Assembly (NCBI GenBank): GCA_016840465.1
Contig: JAEOSH010000057.1
Location: 1-12,955 of the forward strand
Reading direction: 5' to 3'
Source: Candidatus Baldrarchaeum yapensis
Lineage (GTDB): Archaea; Asgardarchaeota; Baldrarchaeia; Baldrarchaeales; Baldrarchaeaceae
DNA length: 12,955 nucleotides
The notes beneath the pieces are model-generated. The model worked only from the letters and a program-made list of their open reading frames with translations, was not told the origin of the DNA and searched no databases. Position numbers and translations under genes: made by a program. Positions 1-12,955 of this stretch are shown piece by piece (within the stretch, counting starts at the first letter, position 1; the number at the start of each line of letters is the position of its first letter).

Positions 1-2
1 GA

Positions 3-812
3 ATATACCCCGGAAAGAAGCACCCCTATGTTGAGTTTTTGGAAGAGGTGCGCAGAATTCTGATAGGCATGGGGTTCCAAGAAGCACGAGGCCCGTACGT
101 CGAACTCGAATTTTACAATTTCGACATGTTGTTTCAGGCGCAGGATCACCCCGCGAGAGAAATACATGACTCCTACCTGTTGAAGTACCCGATGTACGGC
201 GAAATAAGAAACCGAGAACTTCTCGAAAACGTCAGGCAGACCCATGAAAATGGATGGAAAACCGGATCTCGTGGATGGAGATACAAATGGTCCTTCGACC
301 TCGCGAGAAGACTCATCCTAAGGACTCAAACGACGGCCGTTAGCATGCGTTACCTTGTTGAACATAAGAGCCCTCCCATAAAGATGTTCTGCATAGACAG
401 GGTATTCCGACCGGATGTGCTTGATGCGACTCACAGCATGGAGTTCTGCCAGCTCGAAGGAATAATAGTTGATGAGGGGCTCTCGCTAAAGCATTTGCTT
501 GGAGCCCTCAGGGACATTATGAGAGAGCTCGGATTCAAGGAGATGAAATTTAAGCCCGGTTACTTCCCGTTCACTGAGCCGAGCGTCGAGTGTTTTGTCA
601 AACATCCCAAGTTAGGATGGATGGAGGTTGCAGGCTCCGGCCTTTTTAGGCCTGAGGTGCTAATACCACTGGGAATAGACTACCCGAGGGTGCAGGTACT
701 CGCATGGGGGATAGGAATAGAGCGTCTTGCAATGGTCGCGCTGAATATCGATGATATCAGGTATTTGCGAACACATGACCTGGAATGGTTAAGAAATAAG
801 GAGGTGATTTGA
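3..812 (+). CDS. pheS: Phenylalanyl-tRNA synthetase alpha subunit, C-terminal catalytic part (5'-truncated by window edge)
   Basis: Frame is open from position 3 (IYPGKKHPYVEFLEEVRR...). Class II PheRS motifs: FQAQDHPAREIHDS, LRTQTT, motif 2 RVFRPDVLDATHSMEFCQLEG, YFPFTEPS, motif 3 AWGIGIERLAM. Directly followed by pheT. Confidence 0.97.
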   Translation: MYPGKKHPYVEFLEEVRRILIGMGFQEARGPYVELEFYNFDMLFQAQDHPAREIHDSYLLKYPMYGEIRNRELLENVRQTHENGWKTGSRGWRYKWSFDLARRLILRTQTTAVSMRYLVEHKSPPIKMFCIDRVFRPDVLDATHSMEFCQLEGIIVDEGLSLKHLLGALRDIMRELGFKEMKFKPGYFPFTEPSVECFVKHPKLGWMEVAGSGLFRPEVLIPLGIDYPRVQVLAWGIGIERLAMVALNIDDIRYLRTHDLEWLRNKEVI

Positions 813-2504
813 TTGCCGACAATACAGGTGTCCTATAAGGATTTATGTAATCTCATAGGAAAGTCTTTAAGTTTAGAGGAACTTGAGGACATAATCCTGC
901 TGGTGAAAGGAGAACTTGAGGATGCGACGCCGCAACCTGACGGAGATTACGAGCTAAGTATAGAGATAACGAGTGATAGACCCGATATGTTGTCAGCCGA
1001 GGGGCTTGCAAGAACAATAAAAGGCTTTCTCGAGATAGAACTCGGAATTCCAAAATATGAGGTTGCCCCGCCTAAGATTGTGGCTCGTGTTGATCGCTCA
1101 GTGCTCCCGGTGAGGCCATGCGTTGCATTTGCCGTTGTCAGAGGAATAAAATTCAACGATTACCTCATAAGACAGATAATGCAGCTTCAAGAGAAGCTTC
1201 ACGAGACTTACGGCCGAAAGCGAAGAAAGGTCTCCATAGGAATACATGACCTGGATAAGGTAAATCCCCCCTTCAAATACTTTGCTGAAGATCCTGATAA
1301 GATACGCTTCGTGCCGCTCGGGGAAACCAAGGAGATGAGCGGTAGGGAAATTCTGGAAAAACACCCCAAGGGTGTGACATACGGCCACATAATAAAGGAC
1401 TTCAACAGGTATCCTCTGATCATCGACAGAGACGGCAATGTGCTCTCAATGCCTCCGATAATAAACAGCATCGTCACACAAGTGACCGAACAAACACGTA
1501 ACCTTTTCATCGACGTTACTGGAACCGAATGGGACGCGGTACTCTATGCGCTCAATATAATCGTCACAAACCTCGCCGAGCGGGGAGGTAAAATAGAAGC
1601 GGTCCGCGTAGAGCATCCAGAGCGCTCCTTCGTGTCTCCTGACCTCTCCCTCAAGACTATGAATGTGAACATAGATTTCATAAACAAAATACTGGGGTAC
1701 CAGCTGGATGCTCCTCAGATAATAAGATGTCTAAAGAAGTGCCGATTAGACGCCGAACTTGTATCTGAGAATGAAATACGGGTCTATATACCCGCGTATC
1801 GGACCGATTTCCTGCATCCGGTCGATATCGCCGAGGAGGTGGCGATAGGTTTTGGTTATAACAGGATAGAACCAGAAACTCCACCAACTTTGACTTTTGG
1901 GAAGGAACTCGATGATGCAAAGTTCTGCAGAAAAATTCGTGATATTATGGTTGGGATGGGGTTCCAAGAGGTCTACTTCTATGTAATGTCGAGCGAGGAC
2001 ATACAGGTCCATAAAATGAACCTTCCTCGTCTCGAATTAGTGACAATTCTCAACCCTACATCTCAAGAATTCACCGTACTAAGGAGATGGCTATTACCCG
2101 GCTTATTGCTCATATTGAGCAGGAACTCCCATGTTCCACTACCACATAAAATATTTGAGGTCGGCGATGTTGTGGAGATAGATGAGAGTCTGGAGAACAA
2201 GACTAGGAACGTAAAACACGTGGCGGCGGTTATCAGCGATCATAGCACGAGTTATGAAGACATACAGGCAGTCGTGTACGCACTATTACGTTCGCTGGGA
2301 ATAGAGTTTAAGGTGCAAGCCTCTGAACATCCGAGTTTCATAAACGGCAGATGTGCAACAATACTGATCGGCGGAAAAGAAGCAGGGATCATGGGCGAAG
2401 TAAATCCGGAGGTTTTAATGAACTTTGGGATCGAAAACCCGACCACGGCATTTGAACTCGACATCGATGCGCTATTGGCATACTGGAAAGCAAATAAGAA
2501 GTAA
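813..2504 (+). CDS. pheT: Phenylalanyl-tRNA synthetase beta subunit (archaeal/eukaryotic type)
   Basis: 563 aa; DRPDMLSAEGLAR, QEKLHETYGRKR, GIHDLDK, LSMPPIINS, RTDFLHPVDIAEEVAIGFGYN, GEVNPEVL motifs. TTG start abuts the pheS stop; SD GAGGTGA at 801-807. Confidence 0.97.
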   Translation: MPTIQVSYKDLCNLIGKSLSLEELEDIILLVKGELEDATPQPDGDYELSIEITSDRPDMLSAEGLARTIKGFLEIELGIPKYEVAPPKIVARVDRSVLPVRPCVAFAVVRGIKFNDYLIRQIMQLQEKLHETYGRKRRKVSIGIHDLDKVNPPFKYFAEDPDKIRFVPLGETKEMSGREILEKHPKGVTYGHIIKDFNRYPLIIDRDGNVLSMPPIINSIVTQVTEQTRNLFIDVTGTEWDAVLYALNIIVTNLAERGGKIEAVRVEHPERSFVSPDLSLKTMNVNIDFINKILGYQLDAPQIIRCLKKCRLDAELVSENEIRVYIPAYRTDFLHPVDIAEEVAIGFGYNRIEPETPPTLTFGKELDDAKFCRKIRDIMVGMGFQEVYFYVMSSEDIQVHKMNLPRLELVTILNPTSQEFTVLRRWLLPGLLLILSRNSHVPLPHKIFEVGDVVEIDESLENKTRNVKHVAAVISDHSTSYEDIQAVVYALLRSLGIEFKVQASEHPSFINGRCATILIGGKEAGIMGEVNPEVLMNFGIENPTTAFELDIDALLAYWKANKK

Positions 2505-2579
2505 ATACAAGAAACTCTTTCTTCAACATTCTTCCAGAAAAATAGGTGAATGAAATGTATTTGTTTTCTTATTGCTTAA

Positions 2580-2804
2580 TTACTTTCTCATGAACTGGCT
2601 GTATGCCAACTTTATGTCTGCGCCGGTGACCGTCTTTCTTCCGGCATGTGCAGCAATATCCTTGGCTCTTTTCGCGATTTCTACCGCGATGTCCTCGATA
2701 ATCTCTCTTAGAGCCTGCGCAGCTGATGCGCTAACTCGTCTTCCACCAGCGCGTCTCATTATCCTGTCGATTGGTGCGAGTGGAAGTTCGGCCTCCTTGG
2801 GCAT
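2580..2804 (-). CDS. Archaeal histone (HMf family), 74 aa
   Basis: ELPLAPIDRIMRRAGGRRVS...HAGRKTVTGADIKLA histone-fold signature. ATG at 2804 is preferred over GTG 2813 because SD GGGGTGA lies 5 nt upstream of it. Confidence 0.95.
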   Translation of the reverse strand: MPKEAELPLAPIDRIMRRAGGRRVSASAAQALREIIEDIAVEIAKRAKDIAAHAGRKTVTGADIKLAYSQFMRK

Positions 2805-3308
2805 AGCATTCACCCCATGACCTCACGCATTCTAACATTTGTTGCTTACACTCAAGATCGAAATGTGACCTCTTTCCTTTATTAATCTACCGCACAAGAT
2901 TAGCGATAGTAGCTATTTACTACACATACCATCAACCATGATGGGTAGAATGTACTACTAATGAGGCTCATGCATCTTAGTGACCTTTTATAGCTATCAT
3001 CAATCCGTTCCCATATCAATACTTCTTATTACTCCTAGTGTATAGTTTTGCTTGTTTGTAAGCATAATTATCCGACCATATGCATGATGTCATGTCATTT
3101 CTCGATTTTTTCATTATTATAATCTAATATTCAAAGATGCGAAAAATTTAATGTAGAATATACGTCAATTACAATTTTTTCCGTAATATTTAATATAGTC
3201 GTGCAATAAATCCATTAAGCTATCAATTGGTGAATCATTATGTCATTAAGAAGGCATAAACCCCAAGTACCTTCTATTCGTAAACAAATCCATCATTATA
3301 ACTTGTGA

Positions 3309-3563
3309 TAACAACCATGTGACGGAAGTCTTCCGGACTCCCGTGGGGATCTTCCACGAGCAATGAGGTTGTTAAACCGTTCTGACTCTCCGCCACTTTT
3401 GTTGCAATTGACGCGTGCGTGGCGGAGAGCCTTCCCGTCTCGGGGTCCATCGACGGGCTTTCGCGGGGAGCGGTGCTCCGTACATCCATCTGACCCCCTT
3501 CGCTCCGCCCTTTCGGGCCTCCCTCCCTCTCACCGTCCCTCCCACATCCCGGGCGGAGCCCGC
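3309..3563 (-). ncRNA. Candidate structured ncRNA of unknown class (~255 nt)
   Basis: GC-rich island in AT-rich flanks. Stems: 3559-3551/3510-3502 (9 bp), 3479-3475/3471-3467, 3457-3452/3439-3434, 3429-3419/3396-3386 (11 bp), 3374-3367/3316-3309 (8 bp). GAAA tetraloops read on the minus strand; BRE/TATA is correctly placed upstream. Confidence 0.6.
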
Positions 3564-3581
3564 TTAACACAACAGAAGTCC

Positions 3582-3596
3582 TTTATAAGGGTTTTG
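3582..3596 (-). promoter_or_regulatory. Archaeal BRE-TATA promoter (CAAAACCC-TTATAAA) pointing into the GC-rich element
   Basis: Minus strand reads caaaacccTTATAAAggac; the GC-rich stem starts about 22-25 nt downstream of the TATA centre, the expected TSS spacing. Confidence 0.6.
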
Positions 3597-4273
3597 AGGT
3601 TGCAAAGGTGCATGAGGGCAGCAAATGCAACACTATACGTTTCTGCCTCAGCACAATGAAACATATTTCTGATGGAGGATATTACTACCGAAAGGAAGTT
3701 AACCCAAATTGTTACTTAGTTGTTGATAGAGGATAAGTATTGACATCTTGAATTCATAAACCCCGACTATAGCCGCGAATTTGCATTCACGGAGCCTAAT
3801 GGTCACACAGTAAAAAAGAATATCTATGAATACCATCCACGTGGGATATTTATTTGGTTACTGTAAAACTTTCCGGCCAGTATTACCGCTGGCATCCATA
3901 AAGGCTCGCATGGTAACTCCTCTAGCGATGGCCTTCTAACAGGCCAATATCAAGTATAACAGATGACATCACATTAATTAAGAAAATAATGCTTGAAAAT
4001 TCCGAAGATGTCCCCGTGACGGACAAATATGTGGCTACATGGAGGATTTTTGAAGTCGATAATGTTGTTAAGGATTAGAAGTAGTAAGTCTTGCCGCAAA
4101 AAAAGTATTGAGGAACATTGCCTTAAGAATTGAAATGGGAAAATCGTTCAAGGCGAGCGAGGAACAAATTAATATACTGATAAGCTAGTCATCATTGACA
4201 ATCCTTCATTATGCAACTTTCACAAATGAGTTCCAGCGCTTCAATCAGAATCCATACTTTGGAGAGTAGCAAT

Positions 4274-5245
4274 ATGACACATTATGAAAATGTTGTCGTC
4301 ACCGGAGGTGCAGGCTTTTTAGGTAGTCATCTCGTTGACAAACTCATTTTTCGGGGATGCAACGTCACGGTGATCGATAACTTGAGTTCAGGCAAAATCG
4401 ATAATTTGAGAGTCTCGCTTACCAGCGGGCGCCTCAGAGTCGTCATACAGGATCTAAAAAACGTGAATGATGAGTGGATGGCTGAATTTAAAAACAAGGA
4501 CGTAGTGTTTCATTTCGCTGCGAATCCAGAAGTTAGGGTTTCGGTTACCGACCCGCAAATTCACTTTGAGGAGAACCTTCGGGTGACTTTCAACGTGTTA
4601 GAAGCTATGCGAAAATGTGATGTGCCCCTTATAGTGTTCGCCTCCACAAGTACTGTTTACGGGGATGCGAAGAAGATCCCAACACCGGAGGATTATCATC
4701 CTCTGGAGCCGATTTCGGTGTATGGTGCAGTGAAGCTTGCGTGTGAGGTACTAATACAGACGTATTCAAAGCTTTATGGCATCAGGGGATTAATCCTGAG
4801 ATATGCGAATATCATCGGTGCTCGATCAACGCATGGGGTTATAGTCGATTTCATAAGAAAATTGAGGCATAATCCGAAAGAGCTTGAGATTCTCGGAGAT
4901 GGAACACAACGCAAAAGTTATCTGCACGTAAGCGATGCCGTGGACGCCACACTACACGCGCTTGACGTATTTGTGGAGGGCAGCCTTCCATGTGACGTTT
5001 ATAATATTGGGAGTGAAGATTGGATTTCGGTGAGGGAGATCGCGGACATAATCGTAGAGGAGATAGGACTGGAAAATGTAAAGTATGTTTACAAGCCCAT
5101 GACTGCGGATGGAAGAGGATGGCCCGGCGACGTGAAGTTCATGTTGCTGGATATCAGCAAAATAAAAGGGACGGGGTGGAAGCCAAGACTTAACAGCAGG
5201 GATGCTGTAAGAAAAACTGTCAGAGAATTATTGGGGAAAGAATGA
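4274..5245 (+). CDS. NAD-dependent epimerase/dehydratase (extended SDR, UDP-glucose 4-epimerase-like)
   Basis: VVVTGGAGFLGSH Rossmann motif, HFAANPEVR, FASTSTVYG, catalytic YGAVK (YxxxK), GDGTQRKSY. ATG 4274 with SD GGAGA at 4261-4265 is preferred over ORF start 4211. Confidence 0.93.
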   Translation: MTHYENVVVTGGAGFLGSHLVDKLIFRGCNVTVIDNLSSGKIDNLRVSLTSGRLRVVIQDLKNVNDEWMAEFKNKDVVFHFAANPEVRVSVTDPQIHFEENLRVTFNVLEAMRKCDVPLIVFASTSTVYGDAKKIPTPEDYHPLEPISVYGAVKLACEVLIQTYSKLYGIRGLILRYANIIGARSTHGVIVDFIRKLRHNPKELEILGDGTQRKSYLHVSDAVDATLHALDVFVEGSLPCDVYNIGSEDWISVREIADIIVEEIGLENVKYVYKPMTADGRGWPGDVKFMLLDISKIKGTGWKPRLNSRDAVRKTVRELLGKE

Positions 5246-5275
5246 ATTTTTTGCTTACCGATACACCTTGACTCG

Positions 5276-5491
5276 TTATAAGTAACCCAGACTCCTGAGC
5301 CTTCTCTTTATCTCTTCCTCCTCTTCAGGAGAGTACACTTCTTCCTCCTCTTCCTCCTCTAGCACTTCATTAAGGACAAACTCCACAAACTCCTCGATGC
5401 TCTCGAAGCCACCACTCTCCTTTACGTGCTTTTTCAATCTCTCGTAGAGTTCTTTTTTTATGTAAATCGGAACTTTTTCCTCCGACATCAT
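5276..5491 (-). CDS. Small CopG/ribbon-helix-helix-like protein with acidic tract and RLRSLGYL tail
   Basis: VPIYIKKELYERLK...GFESIEEFVEFVLNEVL fits the RHH beta-alpha-alpha pattern; paralogous to the 9384-9617 protein; SD GGGGTGG upstream. Confidence 0.8.
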   Translation of the reverse strand: MMSEEKVPIYIKKELYERLKKHVKESGGFESIEEFVEFVLNEVLEEEEEEEVYSPEEEEEIKRRLRSLGYL

Positions 5492-5506
5492 CCCACCCCT
5501 TTTCTA

Positions 5507-6262
5507 TTATAGCAACAGAATTATTCCCATCATGAAGAGTAGTGCGGAGAGTGTATAGAGTATGTAGCGGTCTGGAATTTTATGGTTTATGAAGAAACCC
5601 ATTGTAACACCGGGTATCGATCCCATCAAAAGCGTGAGAACCAAGAATATGTCGACATTTCCAATGATTGCATGTATGATTGCGGCCAATGACGTGACTA
5701 CAAAACTGTACACCATGTCGGTGCCTACAATCTTTCCGCCCTTCTTCATGAAGCGAAGAAGAACAAGAGCGAGAATCGTTCCACTTCCGACAGATGTGAA
5801 CACCACAACCACTCCTATTAGGAATCCTACAAATACGAAAAACACCCAGTTATACTCCTGAGCACGATATAATCGCTCTTTCTTGTCATTTCCTCTATAC
5901 AATCTGATTATATGAAGAGTAGAAGTTAAGATGAGTATCGACGAGAGCAAGTACCTTATAACAAGGTTCACAATGGTAGATTGCATTATGGTTCGTAGAA
6001 TCAACGCACTAATCACAATGGACGGTATTGTTCCCATCAAGAGGGGAGCCACTATTTTGAATTCGACCTTCCTAGACTTCATGTAAAGTGATGAGCCCAC
6101 CCCTCTTGTTATCGACATGTAAAGAAGATCAGATCCCACTGCGCGTATTGGGGGAACTCCTAGTAGCATGAGAGCGGGTGTAAGGACAGCACCTCCTCCC
6201 ATTCCGCTAAGTCCTATTAACATTCCAATTACGAAACCTAAAAGTATGATAAGAGGGTTCAT
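5507..6262 (-). CDS. Sulfite exporter TauE/SafE family (TSUP) membrane protein
   Basis: Multi-pass hydrophobic protein with duplicated GLSGMGGGAVLTP / TSVGSGTI motifs and AVGSDL / IVGTD repeats; SD GGTGA. Confidence 0.9.
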   Translation of the reverse strand: MNPLIILLGFVIGMLIGLSGMGGGAVLTPALMLLGVPPIRAVGSDLLYMSITRGVGSSLYMKSRKVEFKIVAPLLMGTIPSIVISALILRTIMQSTIVNLVIRYLLSSILILTSTLHIIRLYRGNDKKERLYRAQEYNWVFFVFVGFLIGVVVVFTSVGSGTILALVLLRFMKKGGKIVGTDMVYSFVVTSLAAIIHAIIGNVDIFLVLTLLMGSIPGVTMGFFINHKIPDRYILYTLSALLFMMGIILLL

Positions 6263-6276
6263 GAGTTTTCACCGGA

Positions 6277-6819
6277 TTATTGTAAGCAACCAAGTTTGCG
6301 GAGCGTCTCCAATATTTTCCTAGAACACTCCTCGGGGTTCTCATGTTCTGTATCTACGATAACTTCCGGTTTTTCAGGCTCCTCATAGACGTCCTGTATC
6401 CCAGTCATGTTCTTTATTTCCCCACTGAGTGCCTTCTTATACAGTCCTTTCGGATCCCTGCGTATGCACTCCTCTAAGCTACATTTTACATACACTTCCA
6501 CGAATTTTAACCCCTCCTGCTCGATTATTCTCCTTGCTTCCTCTCTTATGCTCCGATAAGGAGAAACAAAGGACGCTACCACCGCAACGCCATTTCTCGC
6601 TAATAGCTTGGAAACGTATGCAACTCTTCTGAGGTGTCTTTCCCTGTCCTCCCTGCTAAAGCCCGCCTCGGGACTAAGCCACTTTCTTACCTCGTCCCCA
6701 TCTAAAAGTTCAACCTTTAGCCCCATTTCCTTAAGATGTCGCTCAAGGTGTCGAGCAATAGTGGTCTTACCGGATCCAGGCAGTCCCGTTAGCCATACGA
6801 CAAACCCCTTCTCCATCAT
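6277..6819 (-). CDS. cysC: Adenylyl-sulfate (APS) kinase
   Basis: WLTGLPGSGKTT P-loop, LLDGDEVR, GFSREDR, SFVSPY, RRDPKGLYKKA, MTGIQDVYEEP. SD GAGGAGG; ATG overlaps the upstream TGA. Confidence 0.96.
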   Translation of the reverse strand: MMEKGFVVWLTGLPGSGKTTIARHLERHLKEMGLKVELLDGDEVRKWLSPEAGFSREDRERHLRRVAYVSKLLARNGVAVVASFVSPYRSIREEARRIIEQEGLKFVEVYVKCSLEECIRRDPKGLYKKALSGEIKNMTGIQDVYEEPEKPEVIVDTEHENPEECSRKILETLRKLGCLQ

Positions 6820-8204
6820 AACACCTCCTCTATTACCCTCCCCTCCATTGTTGGTGGCACGGAGATCCCCATGAGTTTTAAAACCGTGGGCGCAATATCA
6901 AGGATATTCACATCCACCCTTCTACCGTTTAGGTTTCTACGAGGGTCAAAAAAGATGAAAATTCCATCATAGTCGTGCACCGCATCATCGGGTCCCGTGT
7001 CATTTTCCGGCAGATAAAGGGTATTATGACCTATTGTTCCGGCGGACCTCCAGTAAAGGTCATCAAAGTAGACCATTAGGTCCGGCGGCTCCCCCTTACA
7101 AACGGGGTATAATTCCTCGGGCTTAAAGACCTTAGTGTTCCACTTTTCGCCATTCGGTCCCCTTATATTCAGAATTTTCCGCTTCAGTTCCTCCCTAACG
7201 CGCTCATAGTCTTCCGGATCTACAACTCCACTCTTTTCTCTTCCCTTCACATTTATGAAAATCCTCGCATAGTACCCACCCCATCCCCATGCGATAGTAT
7301 TTTCCCAGTCGACATCCGCCTTTTCGAGATCTGTGACCTTTTCGGGCCGCTTCTTCAGCTTCAGGTACCCCTCCTTTATCAACCACTCATTTATGCAGAA
7401 AGCCCCCTTCATCCTCTTCGCACCATGATCTGATACCACAAAAACCACAGTGTCATCGTCTATCAGCGATAGTATTTCTCCCACTTCTCGGTCGAGGTAC
7501 TTGTAGTAGTCCCTGATCACGTTTTCGTACTTCGTCCCCGGCTGGTAGAGATGATGCTCCTTATCAAAGAACTTCCAGAAGGCGTGTTGTATCCTGTCGA
7601 GACCTATCTCGACAAACATGAAGAAATCCCAGGGCTTCTCTGTCAGAAGGTACTTTATCACCTTAAACCTCTTCTCCGTCATTTCATATATTTCCCTTAG
7701 CACGGCATCCCTATCTTCTCGCCTGAAGGGCACATCTATTATGTACTCGCCCACTAGCCGCTCTATCTCCTCCTTAAGTTCTGGCGGATACGTGTACTCC
7801 CTCTTAGTGTCAGGAGTCATGAGGCAGGAAATCAGCCATCCATTGACGCGAGGCGGCGGATATGTTGGTGGGACACCAACGAGACAGACCTTCCTTCCTC
7901 TCTCACCTATGTAGTCCCATATCTTTTTCACTTTTATCGACCGAGATGATGGTAGAGATATCTCCGTGTACGAGTACCTCTTCCTGTGCCTAAACCCATA
8001 GAGCCCCAATCTTCCTGGATTAACACTCGTAACCATGACTATCCACGCAGGTATCGTTATAGGAGGATCGCAGGATCTCAATTTTCCATATGCTCCCCTC
8101 TCTATCAGCTCCCTCAGGTTCGGGAGATCTTCCCTGAATTGCTCGAAGACAAGTTGCGGAGCTGCGGCATCTAACCCGATTATCAAAACTTTCCTTCCAT
8201 TCAA
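6816..8204 (-). CDS. Alkaline phosphatase superfamily protein (type I phosphodiesterase / nucleotide pyrophosphatase-like)
   Basis: IIGLD first metal ligand, PPITIPAW (Thr nucleophile position), GLDRIQH, VSDHG, DDAVH, DIAPTVL. TTG at 8204 follows SD AAGGAGGT and is preferred over ORF start 8246, which overlaps sat. Confidence 0.9.
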   Translation of the reverse strand: MNGRKVLIIGLDAAAPQLVFEQFREDLPNLRELIERGAYGKLRSCDPPITIPAWIVMVTSVNPGRLGLYGFRHRKRYSYTEISLPSSRSIKVKKIWDYIGERGRKVCLVGVPPTYPPPRVNGWLISCLMTPDTKREYTYPPELKEEIERLVGEYIIDVPFRREDRDAVLREIYEMTEKRFKVIKYLLTEKPWDFFMFVEIGLDRIQHAFWKFFDKEHHLYQPGTKYENVIRDYYKYLDREVGEILSLIDDDTVVFVVSDHGAKRMKGAFCINEWLIKEGYLKLKKRPEKVTDLEKADVDWENTIAWGWGGYYARIFINVKGREKSGVVDPEDYERVREELKRKILNIRGPNGEKWNTKVFKPEELYPVCKGEPPDLMVYFDDLYWRSAGTIGHNTLYLPENDTGPDDAVHDYDGIFIFFDPRRNLNGRRVDVNILDIAPTVLKLMGISVPPTMEGRVIEEVL

Positions 8205-8223
8205 GATATGAACCTCCTTTCGG

Positions 8224-9372
8224 TCACTCCACAAATGGGTTTTCAAATTGGAAAATAGCCTCCGCCACCTCAGGCCTCATGAACTCTGGTGGCGGCGTTT
8301 TGCCGCTCCTTATCATCTCCCTAATCTTTGTTCCACTAAACCGCAACCTAAAGGACTCATCATGAGGGCACACTCTCTCATTGACAATTGCACCACACTT
8401 TCTGCAGTAAAAGAACTCTCTGAAGAAGAGAGGGGTTATCCCCAGATCCGGAAACTCCTTGAATATTTCCTGTGCCTCGTAAGGACCGTAGTAGTTTCCA
8501 ACCCCCGCGTGATCACGCCCAACTATAAAGTGCGTACACCCAAAGTTCTTCCTCATGATCGCATGATGAATAGCCTCCCGGGGACCCGCATACCGCATCT
8601 CATAACGCACTATACTCAAAACCGCAGACTCCCGGGGGTAATAATTTCTAAGGAGAACCTCGTAGGCCGATAGTATAACATCGTCCCTAAAATCGCCGCG
8701 CTTTTTCCTACCTATAACCGGATTTATGAAAAGACCATCCACGAAAACGAGTGCTGACTTCTGAAGGTACTCATGACCAAGATGAGGAACATTTCTTGTC
8801 TGAAATCCAACTACGGTCTTCCATCCCCTCTCCCTGAACAGCACCCGCGTCTCAACCGGCCTTAATGTGTATCTTTCAAAGGGGTTCGGTGGATCATTAA
8901 TGAGATCAACTCTGCCGCCGATCAAGTATTTTCCCATGGAGAAAACCTTCGCAACACCGGGATGTGCGAGATCTGTTGTCTTAAACACGCATCTCGCAAA
9001 TCTTTCCTTGTCATATACGTAAATCTCCTCAACATGCAACACTGCAACTGGAATGTCTTCATAATACAGCATCACATCGTCACCGGGCTCTATTCTTGCC
9101 GCGGTTTTCTCATCAATGTCTAGCACTATCGGAATCGTCCACGGAAGATCATTTGGCAGACGCATGTCATCTAGAACGCTCAGAAACTCCTCTTCTAACA
9201 TGAAACCCTCAAGTGGACTGTATACACCGTAAGCTATGTTCTCGGCATCGAATGCCCTTCCCTGATCAATATTCAACCTTTCGAACTCGTCTACCTCCTC
9301 CAATATTCTCTCTCGCCTCTTGGACGCAAGCACCCTGTTGACAAGCCTACCTCCATGTGGCCTCGATATCAT
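8224..9372 (-). CDS. sat: Sulfate adenylyltransferase (ATP sulfurylase)
   Basis: PHGGRLVNR, YSPLEGFM, FQTRNVPHLGHE (QxRN/HxGH), MRYAGPREA, CTHFIVGRDHAGVG, SGTKIR. ATG 9372 with SD GGGGTG. Confidence 0.97.
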   Translation of the reverse strand: MISRPHGGRLVNRVLASKRRERILEEVDEFERLNIDQGRAFDAENIAYGVYSPLEGFMLEEEFLSVLDDMRLPNDLPWTIPIVLDIDEKTAARIEPGDDVMLYYEDIPVAVLHVEEIYVYDKERFARCVFKTTDLAHPGVAKVFSMGKYLIGGRVDLINDPPNPFERYTLRPVETRVLFRERGWKTVVGFQTRNVPHLGHEYLQKSALVFVDGLFINPVIGRKKRGDFRDDVILSAYEVLLRNYYPRESAVLSIVRYEMRYAGPREAIHHAIMRKNFGCTHFIVGRDHAGVGNYYGPYEAQEIFKEFPDLGITPLFFREFFYCRKCGAIVNERVCPHDESFRLRFSGTKIREMIRSGKTPPPEFMRPEVAEAIFQFENPFVE

Positions 9373-9383
9373 ATTACACACCC

Positions 9384-9617
9384 CTAAAGGTATCCAAGCG
9401 CCTTGAGTTTCTGCTTTATCCTCTCAACATCTTCCTCGGTAAACGGTTCGGAGGATCGCTCTGCCTCGTGCATCGCAACTATTTCCCTCAGAACATACGT
9501 CACATAATCGCTCACGCTCTTAAATCCCGTGTCTTTGATCAGATCCTTTATTCTCTCATAGAGAGATACTGGTATCGACACTGTTGTGTATTTTCTGCGT
9601 TGCTTCTCTTCATTCAC
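9384..9617 (-). CDS. CopG/ribbon-helix-helix transcriptional regulator with KLKALGYL tail
   Basis: YTTVSIPVSLYERIK...GFKSVSDYVTYVLRE is a typical RHH. GTG at 9617 follows SD AGGGGAG and is preferred over ORF start 9653. First gene of the operon. Confidence 0.88.
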   Translation of the reverse strand: MNEEKQRRKYTTVSIPVSLYERIKDLIKDTGFKSVSDYVTYVLREIVAMHEAERSSEPFTEEDVERIKQKLKALGYL

Positions 9618-9670
9618 CTTGAAAACTCCCCTTGCCCGACCGTGTAATGCCAAATCGTCATGGAACGGAA

Positions 9671-9720
9671 TTAATTACTGATAATTATACAATAATTAAT
9701 TATATGTAATTAAATCTTTC
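9671..9720 (-). promoter_or_regulatory. Operon promoter region (GAAAGA-TTTAATTA) overlapped by an array of TAATTA palindromes
   Basis: TAATTA at 9672, 9682, 9693, 9697 and 9707; 8-bp inverted repeat TTAATTAC (9671-9678) / GTAATTAA (9706-9713). Confidence 0.5.
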
Positions 9721-9862
9721 CCCTCCTTGACACTCGGACAAAAACCTCTACTCGTTCAGTTGCTAATTCCGTAAAAGTTCTCATTACATCGATGGAAAAG
9801 TGAAATTCCACGAGCAACTTACATGCCGAATATGGAATTTGAAAAGAAGAAAGACATGCAAG

Positions 9863-9940
9863 TGGTGCGGCCGCCGGGATTTGAACCCGGGTTACCGGCT
9901 CGGAAGGCCGGTGTCCTAGTCCAGGCTAGACGACGGCCGC
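9863..9940 (-). tRNA. tRNA-Gly(TCC), intronless, CCA encoded
   Basis: GCGGCCG acceptor stem, D arm, anticodon arm CCGGC-CTTCCGA-GCCGG, T arm CCGGG-TTCAAAT-CCCGG, ACCA end; 78 nt. Confidence 0.97.
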
Positions 9941-9966
9941 ATCATGTGCATAATTATTTCAAGGCA

Positions 9967-9988
9967 GTGAGTTTAAAAATTTACTCAC
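9967..9988 (-). promoter_or_regulatory. tRNA promoter TATA (TTTTTAAA) flanked by inverted repeat GTGAGT-N10-ACTCAC
   Basis: TATA-like box at 9979-9972, about 32 nt upstream of the mature tRNA 5' end; perfect 6-bp inverted repeat around it. Confidence 0.5.
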
Positions 9989-10109
9989 ATGAACCATCCG
10001 GATCATTTGAACGTAGAAAACGAGTATCGCTACCGGATGACAACACCACATTTGGAGTTGTTCATCTTTTAGAGCCAGCCGACCAAGGTCTATTGCTAGT
10101 GGAAGGATG

Positions 10110-10121
10110 AAAAATAAAAAA
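10110..10121 (-). terminator. Oligo-U tract (UUUUUUAUUUUU) right after the terminal hairpin of the ncRNA candidate
   Basis: Plus strand aaaaataaaaaa; archaeal intrinsic termination occurs at oligo-T tracts. Confidence 0.55.
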
Positions 10122-10283
10122 TGCCCCTTCGAGGGGCAGAACTGATCCGCTACCTTCCGTGGCTCCTCAGGGCCCCAGCCCCTTGGAACCCCGGAAGTTC
10201 ACGGATCTTTGAGCCACCTCTCTGCAGAGTCCTCTCGGACCCTACAGTTTGGTGGCACCGTTCCGCCCCTCGAAGGGGCATTT
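10119..10283 (-). ncRNA. Candidate structured ncRNA (~165 nt) closed by a perfect 19-bp terminal inverted repeat; MITE is the alternative
   Basis: AAATGCCCCTTCGAGGGGC at 10119-10137 is the exact reverse complement of 10265-10283. Internal 11-bp GAGA-tetraloop hairpin (10247-10222) and GUGGCUC/GAGCCAC stem. Wobble pairs are G-U on minus but A-C mismatches on plus. TATA upstream and U-tract downstream on minus. Confidence 0.65.
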
Positions 10284-10302
10284 ATTACTATAGTGCAGGG
10301 GT

Positions 10303-10316
10303 CTAATAAACTTTTG
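10303..10316 (-). promoter_or_regulatory. BRE-TATA-like promoter (CAAAAG-TTTATTAG) for the 10283-10119 element
   Basis: TATA centre about 10307 puts the TSS near 10281-10279, exactly the 5' end of the terminal stem. Confidence 0.5.
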
Positions 10317-10440
10317 TATTACTCAACGACTAAGAGAACAAATTTTTATTTTTGTAAAAATGATGCTTGTCATATGCAAAAGTTTATGGTTAATAAATGT
10401 TGACGAAGAAAATTTCGCATGTAATAAAGGAGTAGTGCTG

Positions 10441-11484
10441 TCACGTTGATGCATATCCTCCGTATTTGAATTCTATTTCTCTGTTCAGTATCTGGCAGGC
10501 GAGTGTGGACTTCTGATAGGCTCTTTCCATCTCGATTTCACAATTCCGTCCATATAACGTAATTATGATTTTGTTTTCGAGGGGTTGCACAGATATTTCC
10601 TCTACATTTTGCTCTTGTGAGTAGTCCAAGGCATCGGATATTCTTAATAGTGCTGACAGTTTTACTATAGTGTCCTTGAATTCCTCCTGAAGTTTATTAT
10701 TCTCACGGGGGTCTCCCGCCTTTGTACGGTGATACAATGCGACCCATTTGATAATTTCCACATCTGATGAGGACAGCACTCCTTTTATCGTTTCTTTCTC
10801 CTTTTCTATTAGGTTAAAAGTATGGATGTGGTGATGTGCTTCATCCACTTGGACTCCTATATCGTGGAGGACGGACGCAAATATTAGATGTCTTAAGGTG
10901 TCCTCTTTCAAATCGAGTTGTGCTTTTAATCCGTCAAACAGCATAATTGAGAGTTCAGCAACTCTAGCCGCATGCTCTATGCCTCTTCCGTAGTTATACT
11001 TTTCAGCAAGCTGAAGCACCGTTTCTATTTCGCGAGATTGAGCGACTGATATGAGCCTCTCGAAGAGTTGCAGCGTTCTTTCCTGCTTCCAAGATTCAGG
11101 AAACAGCAAGATGTCCTTTGCCACCTCATCACACGCCTCTTCGAAACTCTTTTTTCCGAAAAGCATGAGGTATGCTGCGGCAATTGTTCTACTCCTGCCA
11201 ATTCCGCCGTGACAGTGTACAAGCACCTTCTTCTTGTTTCTTATTTTATCAGCAATCCACGAAACTATCTTATAGAGCTGTAGCAGGTTGGGGGCTCCAA
11301 AATCAGGCACTGGAGTATGGAGCACTTCGACTCCATGTTTTTTCCACAGTATTGGGTCATATGTGAGTTCATAGGGCTGCACTAGGATGATCACAGCATC
11401 GAATTCTTCCGAGAGGGATGGAATCTCGCGCTTGGATGGTTGAGGGGAAGTTGCAAGTTTACCCTTTATTATCCAGTTGCACAT
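10441..11484 (-). CDS. Fusion: N-terminal Cys-based dual-specificity/PTP-like phosphatase + C-terminal Ppx/GppA-type HD domain
   Basis: PVPDFGAP acid loop and VHCHGGIGRS (CX5R) in the N half; HAARVAELS, LHDIG, HHHIH, ALYHR, LRISDALD in the C half. ATG 11484 follows SD GAAGGTGA (ORF track start 11502). Confidence 0.85.
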   Translation of the reverse strand: MCNWIIKGKLATSPQPSKREIPSLSEEFDAVIILVQPYELTYDPILWKKHGVEVLHTPVPDFGAPNLLQLYKIVSWIADKIRNKKKVLVHCHGGIGRSRTIAAAYLMLFGKKSFEEACDEVAKDILLFPESWKQERTLQLFERLISVAQSREIETVLQLAEKYNYGRGIEHAARVAELSIMLFDGLKAQLDLKEDTLRHLIFASVLHDIGVQVDEAHHHIHTFNLIEKEKETIKGVLSSSDVEIIKWVALYHRTKAGDPRENNKLQEEFKDTIVKLSALLRISDALDYSQEQNVEEISVQPLENKIIITLYGRNCEIEMERAYQKSTLACQILNREIEFKYGGYAST

Positions 11485-11546
11485 TTGTATCATCACCTTC
11501 ACTGTTAGGGGGTCTTAAACGTTGTAGGGCGCACGTTATATTGGGG

Positions 11547-11834
11547 ATGAGGATGAAATCTAAAACTGACGATTTAAGGGAGAAGGTTATGGCTGCGATT
11601 TCTACGTATAACAGGTACCATGGTGTCGAGGCTCATGCGAGGCTGCTCGAAATGCAAGAGGATTTGATAATTGTGGAAATATCTGGCAGTTTTTGCGCGA
11701 CGTGCGCGCCGGAGGAGTATCCGATCGATCTTCTTTGCGAGTTTATGGATCAGTTAGGGAGGGACGTTGTTTTGGAGTCGGTGGAAATAGACAATGAGGG
11801 AGGACGTGCGATTGCGAAGTATAGGGTTCTCTGA
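11547..11834 (+). CDS. Small conserved archaeal protein with CxxC (GSFCATC), NifU C-terminal-like
   Basis: YNRYHGVEA...VEISGSFCATCAPEEY. The longer ORF (11418) overlaps the divergent phosphatase gene, so start at ATG 11547 or 11553. The fold assignment is from memory of the family only. Confidence 0.7.
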   Translation: MRMKSKTDDLREKVMAAISTYNRYHGVEAHARLLEMQEDLIIVEISGSFCATCAPEEYPIDLLCEFMDQLGRDVVLESVEIDNEGGRAIAKYRVL

Positions 11835-11838
11835 AAAA

Positions 11839-12723
11839 TTAGCGGAGGTAGGTTTCGAGGATTTCTTCGAGGATCGGGAAGTAGTGTTTGGCAAGGGCAT
11901 TGCCGTTCTTCAGAAGAGAATGAGGTACGGGGCGCATATTGAATACTTTGGTGGGAGTCGACTCGGATGCTATCATGGAGAATGTGCATAGGTGGGGGTT
12001 GGGGTTTTTAAGGACAGCCTCGAAGAACTCTTTTGGTTCGTATGTCATTATATACGCGGGAGACACCGATATTACGACGGTTGCATGTCTCACTTCGTTG
12101 CAAGGGTACACGCTGTCGTTGAAGCTTTCTATCACTATGACATCCGGCTCGTATGTCACTAACTTGGAGAATGCGGATGATGTTGCAATAGAGTAGTATT
12201 TTTTGTGAAGTTTTAGGAATTCGTATTCGCTTTTGATAGTGATGAACCTGTCTTTCCCTATAATTTCTATTATGTCGGGTGTTGGCTTGAATAGCAGTTT
12301 CGACTGGCGGCAGTAGAAGACGTGCTCGGGTTTTTCATTCCAAAGTGAGAACCTTCCGGCGTAAAACCACGTGAAGGGGCTGGTAGTCACTAGGGTGCTT
12401 CTGGTATCCATCGGGTATTTAGCGAGGAATTCCATGTTTGGTATCGACATCAGCATATCTGCCGGGTTGATTGCTTCTATTGGTATGTTTCTTTCGGGTC
12501 CTTTGCTTTCACGCCAAAGTTCGAACGCATCTTGGGAGATTATATTCCTCATCCGGACGCATTGGAGGTAGTGGTCGTACTGCCACCAAATGCTGTGTGC
12601 AGAGAGCGGTTTAAACGGAATTACGGTTATTCCCTTGGACAGCAGAAATGCTATGAGCGTGCGACAGAATGTCGTCTTTCCCGAGTTTTCCGGGAGGGTT
12701 CCACAAATGAATACTGTTTTCAT
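11839..12723 (-). CDS. Predicted P-loop ATPase/GTPase (archaeal COG4028-like; dethiobiotin synthetase/CobQ-like N-terminus)
   Basis: VFICGTLPENSGKTT Walker A, FKPLSAH, IEAINPADML, VIVIESFND. ATG 12723 preferred over GTG 12807 because it gives the typical N-terminal beta strand and has an AT-rich TATA-like box about 30 nt upstream. Confidence 0.75.
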   Translation of the reverse strand: MKTVFICGTLPENSGKTTFCRTLIAFLLSKGITVIPFKPLSAHSIWWQYDHYLQCVRMRNIISQDAFELWRESKGPERNIPIEAINPADMLMSIPNMEFLAKYPMDTRSTLVTTSPFTWFYAGRFSLWNEKPEHVFYCRQSKLLFKPTPDIIEIIGKDRFITIKSEYEFLKLHKKYYSIATSSAFSKLVTYEPDVIVIESFNDSVYPCNEVRHATVVISVSPAYIMTYEPKEFFEAVLKNPNPHLCTFSMIASESTPTKVFNMRPVPHSLLKNGNALAKHYFPILEEILETYLR

Positions 12724-12811
12724 CGAGACATCACACGCAGTTGCACATTTAATATTAACGTTCCCAGCAACTGGAGGCTGTTTCATAAATAAATTCAACA
12801 TAAACACTCAT

Positions 12812-12955
12812 GGCTAGGCATCGGCCCGGGGGCGTCGGTCGCTGGTCCGAACGGCGCTGTCCGTCTCTGCCCCCTCGGGCCTCATCCTTTCCGCATCACA
12901 CGCACGTCTTTCCGGTGGCGATCCGCTCCACGTTCAGCGCAAGCGACAGCCACTT
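12812..12955 (-). ncRNA. 3' end of a GC-rich structured RNA, possibly SRP (7S) RNA; truncated by window edge
   Basis: Abrupt GC-rich block ending ...CGCCCCCG-GGCCGAU-GCCUAGCC, which resembles the archaeal SRP helix 1 3' strand, followed by U-rich sequence. No canonical helix-8 motif is visible in the 144 nt. Confidence 0.45.

Follow-up and report, generated by a model that had tools for sequence, protein, structure and literature searches.

What does an alkaline phosphatase-fold enzyme do inside a sulfate-activation operon, and where does the activated sulfate go? The question is raised by the window analysed here, a 12,955-nucleotide stretch of DNA (contig JAEOSH010000057.1, positions 1 to 12,955; assembly GCA_016840465.1) from the Asgard archaeon Candidatus Baldrarchaeum yapensis. 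Its minus strand carries a six-gene operon encoding ATP sulfurylase (Sat) and the kinase (CysC) that acts on adenosine 5'-phosphosulfate (APS), and between their genes lies that of an AlkP/NPP protein, of the alkaline phosphatase (AlkP) and nucleotide pyrophosphatase/phosphodiesterase (NPP) type and called AlkP below. We favour, at a probability of roughly 45%, a reading in which AlkP removes pyrophosphate (PPi), thereby pulling ATP sulfurylase, and serves as a docking site for the tails carried by the operon's regulators and by CysC.

The operon and its tie to sulfate activation

The operon begins with RHH1 (9384-9653, minus strand, as for all six genes), which encodes a CopG-like ribbon-helix-helix (RHH) mini-protein that has an acidic linker and a tail ending in ...KLKALGYL. 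Its match to Pfam RHH_1 is weak alone (20.2 bits, cut-off 20.5); in alignment it matches 70 RHH proteins from related loci. It is likely the operon regulator, and its true start probably lies inside the listed open reading frame (ORF). The sat gene follows (8224-9381; likely start at the ATG at 9372) and is identified by PF01747 (5.8e-94), PUA_2 (3.2e-53) and NF003166 (551 bits, above cut-off); Sat converts sulfate and ATP into APS and PPi.

The AlkP gene (6816-8204) matches Phosphodiest PF01663 (1.6e-47; 163 bits, cut-off 23) and encodes a COG3379-type protein. As listed, its ORF spans 6816-8246 and overlaps sat. Because GGAGG precedes a TTG at 8204 and the resulting 462-aa product agrees with the N-termini of all homologs, that TTG is most likely the real start. 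Downstream lie cysC (6277-6819; APS_kinase PF01583 1.7e-62, TIGR00455 226 bits), whose product turns APS and ATP into 3'-phosphoadenosine 5'-phosphosulfate (PAPS) and ADP, and a TauE/SafE (TSUP, DUF81) membrane permease gene (5507-6262; PF01925 5.1e-35) that may bring sulfate in or send a sulfo-anion out. The last gene, RHH2 (5276-5491), encodes another RHH mini-protein, which has a poly-Glu linker and a tail ending in ...RRLRSLGYL; a Pfam search gave no match, and its RHH homology comes from alignment with the RHH set. With the TTG start, successive genes are separated by 11 nt, 19 nt (sat to AlkP), an ATGA overlap joining AlkP to cysC, 14 nt and 15 nt. The gene order and tight spacing first read from the DNA sequence alone are confirmed.

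We surveyed 80 related loci, the counts of adjoining genes being limited to loci with enough flanking DNA, compared 50 genomes that carry the module with 14 control genomes, and sampled 201 Asgard genomes, in which an AlkP ortholog was defined by E <= 1e-89. The genomes of the phylum sample are kin rather than independent, and the AlkP-sat pattern among them is uniform across many families. The sat gene lies directly upstream of AlkP in 48/68 loci and cysC directly downstream in 53/74, while one or both adjoin AlkP in 53/63; an RHH gene precedes sat-AlkP in 52/61. Among module genomes, with copies distant from AlkP included, cysC is found in 50/50 and sat in 48/50, against 6/14 and 5/14 of the controls. 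In the Asgard sample, 55 of the 56 genomes with an AlkP ortholog carry sat, and only 1 of 111 genomes lacking sat has the ortholog. These surveys tie the AlkP subfamily to sat/cysC far beyond chance across archaea and bacteria, in support of the sequence-only reading.

Within the same loci, median identity to the window proteins is 62% for Sat, 60% for AlkP and 55% for CysC, and this nearly equal conservation indicates that the module evolves as a unit. The association extends to gene fusions, which comprise Sat-AlkP, CysC-AlkP, AlkP-CysC, AlkP-pyruvate kinase-Sat, AlkP-pyruvate kinase, nucleotidyltransferase (NTP transferase)-AlkP, AlkP-GT2 (family 2 glycosyltransferase) and AlkP-methyltransferase. 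Of its partners, AlkP is most closely tied to the PPi producer Sat, and less so to CysC.

Several variants of the arrangement were observed. In Bathyarchaeia (loci L010-L015, L023 and L031), a PhoU + TrkA_C protein takes the place of cysC after RHH-sat-AlkP, and cysC itself lies elsewhere in the genome. Locus L102 and a JGI contig show Sat, a 75-aa protein, an AlkP-pyruvate kinase fusion and a second AlkP in succession. Since no APS kinase was seen on these two contigs, the pyruvate kinase barrel may replace or support the kinase step. Locus L100 encodes a 1151-aa AlkP-pyruvate kinase-Sat fusion (7459-10914), with no cysC nearby, in a polysaccharide cluster that contains a flippase, a GT1 glycosyltransferase, an aminotransferase, epimerases, a PHP phosphoesterase and a B12-radical SAM gene. 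Behind cysC, TauE-type genes occur in about 19/80 related loci and same-strand short-chain dehydrogenase/reductase (SDR) genes in 23/64, the latter mostly in Aminicenantes-type bacteria, where the SDRs are TviC-like and accompanied by a TviB-like dehydrogenase.

An NPP-type active site and LGY tails

Structural comparison places the window AlkP in the NPP family. Its AlphaFold model (pLDDT 97.5) finds ENPP1/3/5/6 and Xac NPP as best folds in Foldseek, with probability 1.00, TM scores of 0.55-0.62 and 13-18% identity. By sequence the relationship is more distant: no PDB chain was found at E <= 0.01, and a profile search against PDB reached NPP and sulfatase fragments only. An ESM Atlas look-up returned only generic "alkaline phosphatase family" clusters. 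The protein family is very large, with 15,371 clusters at 50% identity. Orthologs that are 56-77% identical occur in Asgard archaea, Bathyarchaeia, Nitrososphaeria, Archaeoglobi, Hydrothermarchaeota, Aminicenantes and other bacteria; more distant relatives (36-45% identity) lie mostly on short contigs with uninformative gene context.

More than 130 positions are invariant among 15 orthologs, including T64 (aligned to NPP T90), D26, D217, H221, D273, H274 and H424. The motifs comprise a Thr nucleophile in PPITIPAW, the metal-ligand motifs GLD, DRxxH, SDHG and AVH, and an invariant YGFRHRK loop. By its sequence the protein therefore has what defines an NPP, a Thr nucleophile with Asp/His ligands for two metal ions. 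In the profile alignment the YGFRHRK loop takes the position of the NPP active-site Asn111, and it would fit a polyanionic ligand, for example PPi, PAPS or 3'-phosphoadenosine 5'-phosphate (PAP). AlkP thus shares its fold, nucleophile and two-metal motifs with the NPP/ENPP family (Xac NPP 2GSN, ENPP1/3/5/6); it differs in its low identity to them, in some 80-100 extra residues, in being cytosolic without a signal peptide, and in the peptide tail predicted to lie in its cleft. A formylglycine sulfatase was rejected: the nucleophile segment is P-P-I-T-I-P-A-W, with no CxPxR motif, and the Sulfatase profile (PF00884) matches only residues 248-291 at 19.2 bits (cut-off 25). Family searches (PF00685, PF13469 and relatives) also found no canonical sulfotransferase domain in the protein.

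The regulators suggest what may occupy this cleft. An alignment of 46 RHH homologs leaves just three columns invariant, L76, G77 and Y78, and LGY followed by at most two further residues ends 70/72 RHH proteins of related loci. The window CysC ends in ...LRKLGCLQ, which resembles the RHH tails with Cys in place of Tyr. The pattern G[YC][LIVMC] falls in the last 14 residues of 36/56 module CysC proteins and of 0/58 Sat proteins; a scan of locus proteins found the tail in no Sat, TauE, epimerase or AlkP ortholog. Genome-wide, the strict pattern is confined to two ORFs, RHH1 and RHH2 of this operon.

Related tails were also seen outside these proteins. In locus L100, upstream of an AlkP gene of sulfatase-like type, a free 38-aa peptide (5478-5594) consists only of an acidic linker and a ...KERLKSLGYLD tail. 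AlkP paralogs of greater length (510-620 aa, 30-36% identical) occur near the module in Asgard archaea and Nitrososphaeria (loci L016, L018, L021, L026, L027, L032, L037, L049 and L069) and on contigs C89, C65 and C30 of the source genome. Two of these paralogs end in an RL..LGY tail, and others in a basic helix.

We modelled the complex of AlkP and RHH1, each entered as an alignment built in this analysis. The model scored 0.72, against 0.00 for the best of three controls; 58 of 80 solved complexes attain that mark, as do 2 of 110 mismatched pairs. Contacts agreed by at least 96% between runs, and partner pLDDT was at least 78. The modelled interface is formed by the last 20 residues of RHH1. 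Its Tyr78 touches the nucleophile Thr50 of AlkP (numbered from the TTG start), Ile51, Phe71, Arg72 and the GGYY loop, while Gly77 touches the metal ligand His207 and Leu76 touches Arg204. The RHH1 tail is accordingly predicted, from this model, to bind in the AlkP catalytic cleft.

Such an arrangement has a counterpart in cysteine synthesis. The C-terminal tail of serine acetyltransferase (CysE) plugs the CysK active site, and the tails of the CymR repressor and the CdiA toxin insert likewise. There, too, the tail of a sulfur-pathway enzyme or repressor fills a partner's active site and is displaced by a metabolite. The folds and tail motif are unrelated to those of the Asgard operon, however, and the AlkP-tail contact is a prediction.

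The fate of pyrophosphate and PAPS

Among archaea, a cluster with the order copG - sat - DHH pApase (PAP phosphatase) - NPP - cysC has been published, and the operon is a variant of it. In Pyrococcus yayanosii CH1 (PYCH_17520-17560) this cluster encodes CopG, ATP sulfurylase, a DHH pApase, a type I phosphodiesterase/nucleotide pyrophosphatase and APS kinase (Jin et al. 2021, PMC8268124), with a DUF81/TauE gene adjoining it. The same paper lists the cluster in Ferroglobus, Aciduliprofundum, Aeropyrum and Ignicoccus, with A. boonei in the cluster figure; its authors speculate that the NPP gene product "degrades PPi", found neither a sulfotransferase nor a reductase, and call the purpose of the cluster unclear and the fate of PAPS unknown. 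The Asgard operon resembles the P. yayanosii cluster in its leading copG-type regulator, its enzyme families and their order, and its adjacent TauE gene. It differs in having no pApase gene, and the paper describes no tails, fusions or phyletic survey. The gene cluster is therefore already known; the phyletic survey, the fusions, the genome-wide sink search and the tail-cleft model are new.

In Thermococcus onnurineus the cluster is TON_1704-1707 (Lee et al. 2009, J Bacteriol 191:3415, as given in citing papers). According to those papers, its NPP-type protein TON_1705 hydrolyses PPi in vitro (PMC4463584, PMC8268124, PMC9653972), with kcat 2.1/s, Km 18.8 uM and a pH optimum of 9.5 (Moon et al. 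2015, PMC4463584; PMC9653972), and TON_1706 is a PAP phosphatase (PMC4463584, PMC9653972). Both organisms have a compact operon with an NPP/AlkP-type gene between sat and cysC and, as far as the citing accounts of T. onnurineus go, no convincing downstream reductase or sulfotransferase. Unlike that of T. onnurineus, the Asgard operon lacks a DHH PAP phosphatase gene but carries TauE and a further RHH gene.

The exact five-gene order copG-sat-DHH-NPP-cysC recurs in 13 of the 80 related loci, including one DHVE2/Aciduliprofundum-type contig, and the DHH gene in these loci is a 1e-79 homolog of the Methanothermococcus thermolithotrophicus PAP phosphatase 8A8K. The window operon shares with the published cluster the copG/RHH head, sat and cysC, and the NPP gene between them; the in-cluster DHH pApase is absent, no DHH gene having been found in the ORF and Pfam survey of the window. 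A full-length 8A8K homolog lies on contig C77 of the source genome (4.6e-21). The M. thermolithotrophicus locus (ATP sulfurylase, APS kinase, the DHH PAP phosphatase 8A8K, an APS-reductase-like PAPS reductase and Fsr; PMC10322725) likewise pairs a DHH-type PAP phosphatase with archaeal Sat and CysC. That pathway runs through to sulfide and has no NPP-fold gene, whereas the Asgard genome has no sulfite reductase.

With these parallels, a coherent mechanism may be proposed. The TSUP/TauE permease would supply sulfate, and Sat would produce APS and PPi. AlkP, by means of its Thr nucleophile and its two-metal site, would hydrolyse this PPi and pull the very unfavourable Sat equilibrium; for the window AlkP this activity is proposed by analogy, as the in vitro result belongs to the T. 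onnurineus counterpart only. CysC would turn APS into PAPS. RHH1 and RHH2 would regulate, their invariant LGY tails and the similar CysC tail being predicted to dock in the AlkP catalytic cleft, so that AlkP would combine the work of a helper enzyme with that of a hub or sensor, with a metabolite in the active site competing with tail binding. PAP would be cleared by the unlinked DHH phosphatase homolog on contig C77, and the PAPS consumer would be encoded outside the operon, in a form unrecognisable in this genome.

Three kinds of fusion (Sat-AlkP, AlkP-pyruvate kinase-Sat and NTP transferase-AlkP) link AlkP to PPi producers. [quoted passage not shown] The pyruvate kinase fusion mirrors these helper enzymes and is therefore counted in favour of PPi removal. 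A search of the source genome (2.27 Mb, 100 contigs, 96% complete) turned up a membrane H+-PPase but no soluble PPase of family I or family II.

Other observations weigh against this reading. The orthology with TON_1705 rests on synteny and family name, and a homolog search seeded with the DHVE2-type ortholog returned metagenomic relatives only and no named Thermococcales protein. In the cited accounts TON_1705 is slow (2.1/s) beside the canonical PPase of T. onnurineus (kcat ~3x10^4/s), and because the same organism has so fast an enzyme, PPi hydrolysis could be a side activity of a promiscuous AlkP-fold protein. Fusions to CysC and GT2 involve no PPi, and in 10/63 loci neither sat nor cysC adjoins AlkP. 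A module with its own PAP phosphatase and no PAPS user is, moreover, incomplete if AlkP is a PPase. Nor is there clean complementarity with family I PPase, which is found in 15/56 Asgard genomes with AlkP and 76/145 without it; in one genus family I PPase is present in 0/16 genomes and AlkP in only 8/16. A role for AlkP as a general replacement of soluble PPase was rejected on these counts.

The missing PAPS sink bears on every reading. The sequence-only reading had noted that the window encodes neither a reductase nor a canonical sulfotransferase, and family searches of the window proteins agree. Across the whole assembly we found no match to Sulfotransfer_1 to _4 (PF00685, PF13469, PF03567, PF17784) and none to NIR_SIR sulfite reductase (PF01077). 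The sole strong PAPS_reduct-domain protein, a 664-aa PUA-PP-loop-2x[4Fe-4S] protein on contig C86, was rejected as CysH: it is of the PRK13795 type with a PUA domain and reaches 77 bits, far short of the cut-off of 154 set for the CysH model. Profile searches of the genome thus found neither a bona fide CysH nor a sulfite reductase for assimilatory sulfate reduction, and the absence of a PAPS sink holds for the entire assembly. A sulfotransferase or CysH elsewhere, together with an AlkP unassociated with sat/cysC, had been named as what would speak against a PAPS-using AlkP; since the sink is absent genome-wide and the association is real, neither was encountered.

A cysC paralog, APS-kinase-like and 49% identical to CysC, was noted on contig C59 (5232-9000) beside an MTA (methylthioadenosine) phosphorylase-like gene, a 391-aa gene and a SAH (S-adenosylhomocysteine) hydrolase gene. 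The SAH hydrolase and MTA phosphorylase-like neighbours speak against a second sulfate module, and the paralog probably serves salvage of adenosine compounds instead of sulfate activation.

Could AlkP itself be the sink? That it is a sulfuryl or phosphoryl transferase, spending PAPS on a glycan or on the LGY-tail tyrosine and not mainly a pyrophosphatase, is conceivable but doubtful. If true, it would be the first alkaline-phosphatase-fold PAPS-dependent sulfotransferase and would explain PAPS made without a known user in hundreds of archaea and bacteria. In its glycan form, AlkP would be a non-canonical sulfotransferase passing sulfate from PAPS or APS, via the Thr nucleophile, to a glycan or lipid acceptor; we regard this as improbable.

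Beyond the missing sink in the source genome, the glycan form draws on the absence of Sulfotransfer_1/3 from 31/50 module genomes and on a partial complementarity among sat-positive Asgard genomes: Sulfotransfer_3 occurs in 32/35 without an AlkP ortholog and in 26/56 with it, and 30 of the 33 that lack Sulfotransfer_3 carry AlkP. Kinship and genome size confound the comparison, and the other 19/50 module genomes (~40%) do carry canonical sulfotransferases, one of them (locus L037) within 4.5 kb of AlkP. That 13 loci have a PAP phosphatase inside the cluster implies PAP production by the module's own chemistry, and the low PPase rate reported for TON_1705 in the citing papers points the same way.

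The genomic setting offers circumstantial clues to a glycan acceptor. In the window, the operon converges on an SDR gene (4211-5245, plus strand), which serves here as operon context only; it encodes an NAD-dependent sugar epimerase/dehydratase (PF01370 1.5e-53; best NCBIfam match galE, below cut-off), and the stop codons lie 30 nt apart. The glycan link first suggested by this neighbour recurs in other genomes, as the TviB/TviC-like genes after cysC in bacteria, the polysaccharide cluster around the AlkP-pyruvate kinase-Sat fusion, and the AlkP-GT2 fusion directly after sat-cysC. The GT2 fusion is, however, a single gene cut by a contig end.

Chemistry argues in the opposite direction. AlkP-fold enzymes with a Thr or Ser nucleophile are very poor at sulfuryl transfer, and an NPP-type attack on PAPS would strike phosphorus and merely hydrolyse it. 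Our literature search, limited in reach, found no AlkP-fold PAPS sulfotransferase, and the complex model predicts that the cleft takes up a peptide tail instead of a glycan or lipid. The proposal of the sequence-only reading that AlkP uses PAPS or APS thus draws circumstantial support from the glycan contexts, in part single cases, and from the partial complementarity. Set against it are the tail predicted in the cleft, Sat as the closest partner, the sulfotransferases of many module genomes, and the published description, per the citing papers, of NPP-type TON_1705 as a PPase.

Less probable again is that AlkP adds a group to, or removes one from, the tyrosine of the LGY tails of RHH proteins, CysC and free tail peptides. 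PAPS could donate sulfate, PPi phosphate, and APS or ATP the AMP group, and flux would thereby be written onto the regulators. The model sets Tyr78 against Thr50 and the metal-ligand region at 204/207, LGY is the sole invariant part of the RHH homologs and ends nearly all of them, and the same tail recurs on CysC proteins, two AlkP paralogs and the free L100 peptide. AlkP-fold enzymes also readily pass phosphoryl groups to alcohol acceptors. The model nevertheless predicts a confident interface and not chemistry, the window CysC has Cys at the tail position, and pseudo-substrate inhibition or docking, as in CysE-CysK, explains a tail in the active site equally well.

Least probable is a hydrolase of pathway nucleotides that converts PAP to AMP, or breaks down PAPS or APS, and so limits toxic or excess intermediates: mammalian NPPs hydrolyse PAPS, relatives of this fold that bind nucleotides include ENPP1/3/4, the invariant Arg/His-rich loop fits polyanionic nucleotides and the window has no in-cluster DHH PAP phosphatase, but such a phosphatase stands beside AlkP in 13 loci, so that the two are not redundant, the source genome has its full-length homolog on C77, the T. 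onnurineus DHH enzyme is described in the citing papers as already degrading pAp and PAPS, and APS or PAPS breakdown would render the operon futile. A PAP phosphatase role for AlkP was demoted on the coexistence at 13 loci and the C77 homolog.

Other features of the window and significance

The remainder of the window holds several features apart from the operon. A tRNA-Gly (TCC) gene (9863-9940, minus strand) lies about 210 nt upstream of RHH1 on the operon strand. Farther along, a 353-aa fusion (10441-11502, minus strand) joins a dual-specificity/PTP-type phosphatase to a Ppx/GppA domain III / HD region, an unusual combination, and its neighbour, a 322-aa ORF (11839-12807, minus strand), matched no Pfam family. 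The family search also identified an archaeal-type pheT among the genes, which marks the host as an archaeon. On the other side, a 77-aa ORF (2580-2813, minus strand) has archaeal histone character of the HMf type, judged by eye from its translation.

Between the histone gene and the epimerase lies an AT-rich 1.3-kb gap with no credible ORF, within which positions 3270-3650 form a GC-rich island (55-67% GC). The minus strand of this island folds better than 100 of 100 shuffles (z -2.75), and no Rfam family was found at E <= 0.1; it is a candidate structured RNA.

Carriers of the module include Asgard archaea, Bathyarchaeia, Nitrososphaeria, Thermococcales and Archaeoglobi, together with some bacteria (Aminicenantes and others). 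They spend two ATP per PAPS without a recognised reductase and often without a recognised sulfotransferase. The locking of the NPP gene to sat/cysC, the fusions to pathway and glycan enzymes and the predicted holding of tails make both the role of the enzyme and the fate of the sulfate testable. If AlkP is merely a helper pyrophosphatase, the finding is ordinary; yet even with AlkP in that role, the coupling of a tail in the cleft would be a new regulatory device, analogous to CysE-CysK.

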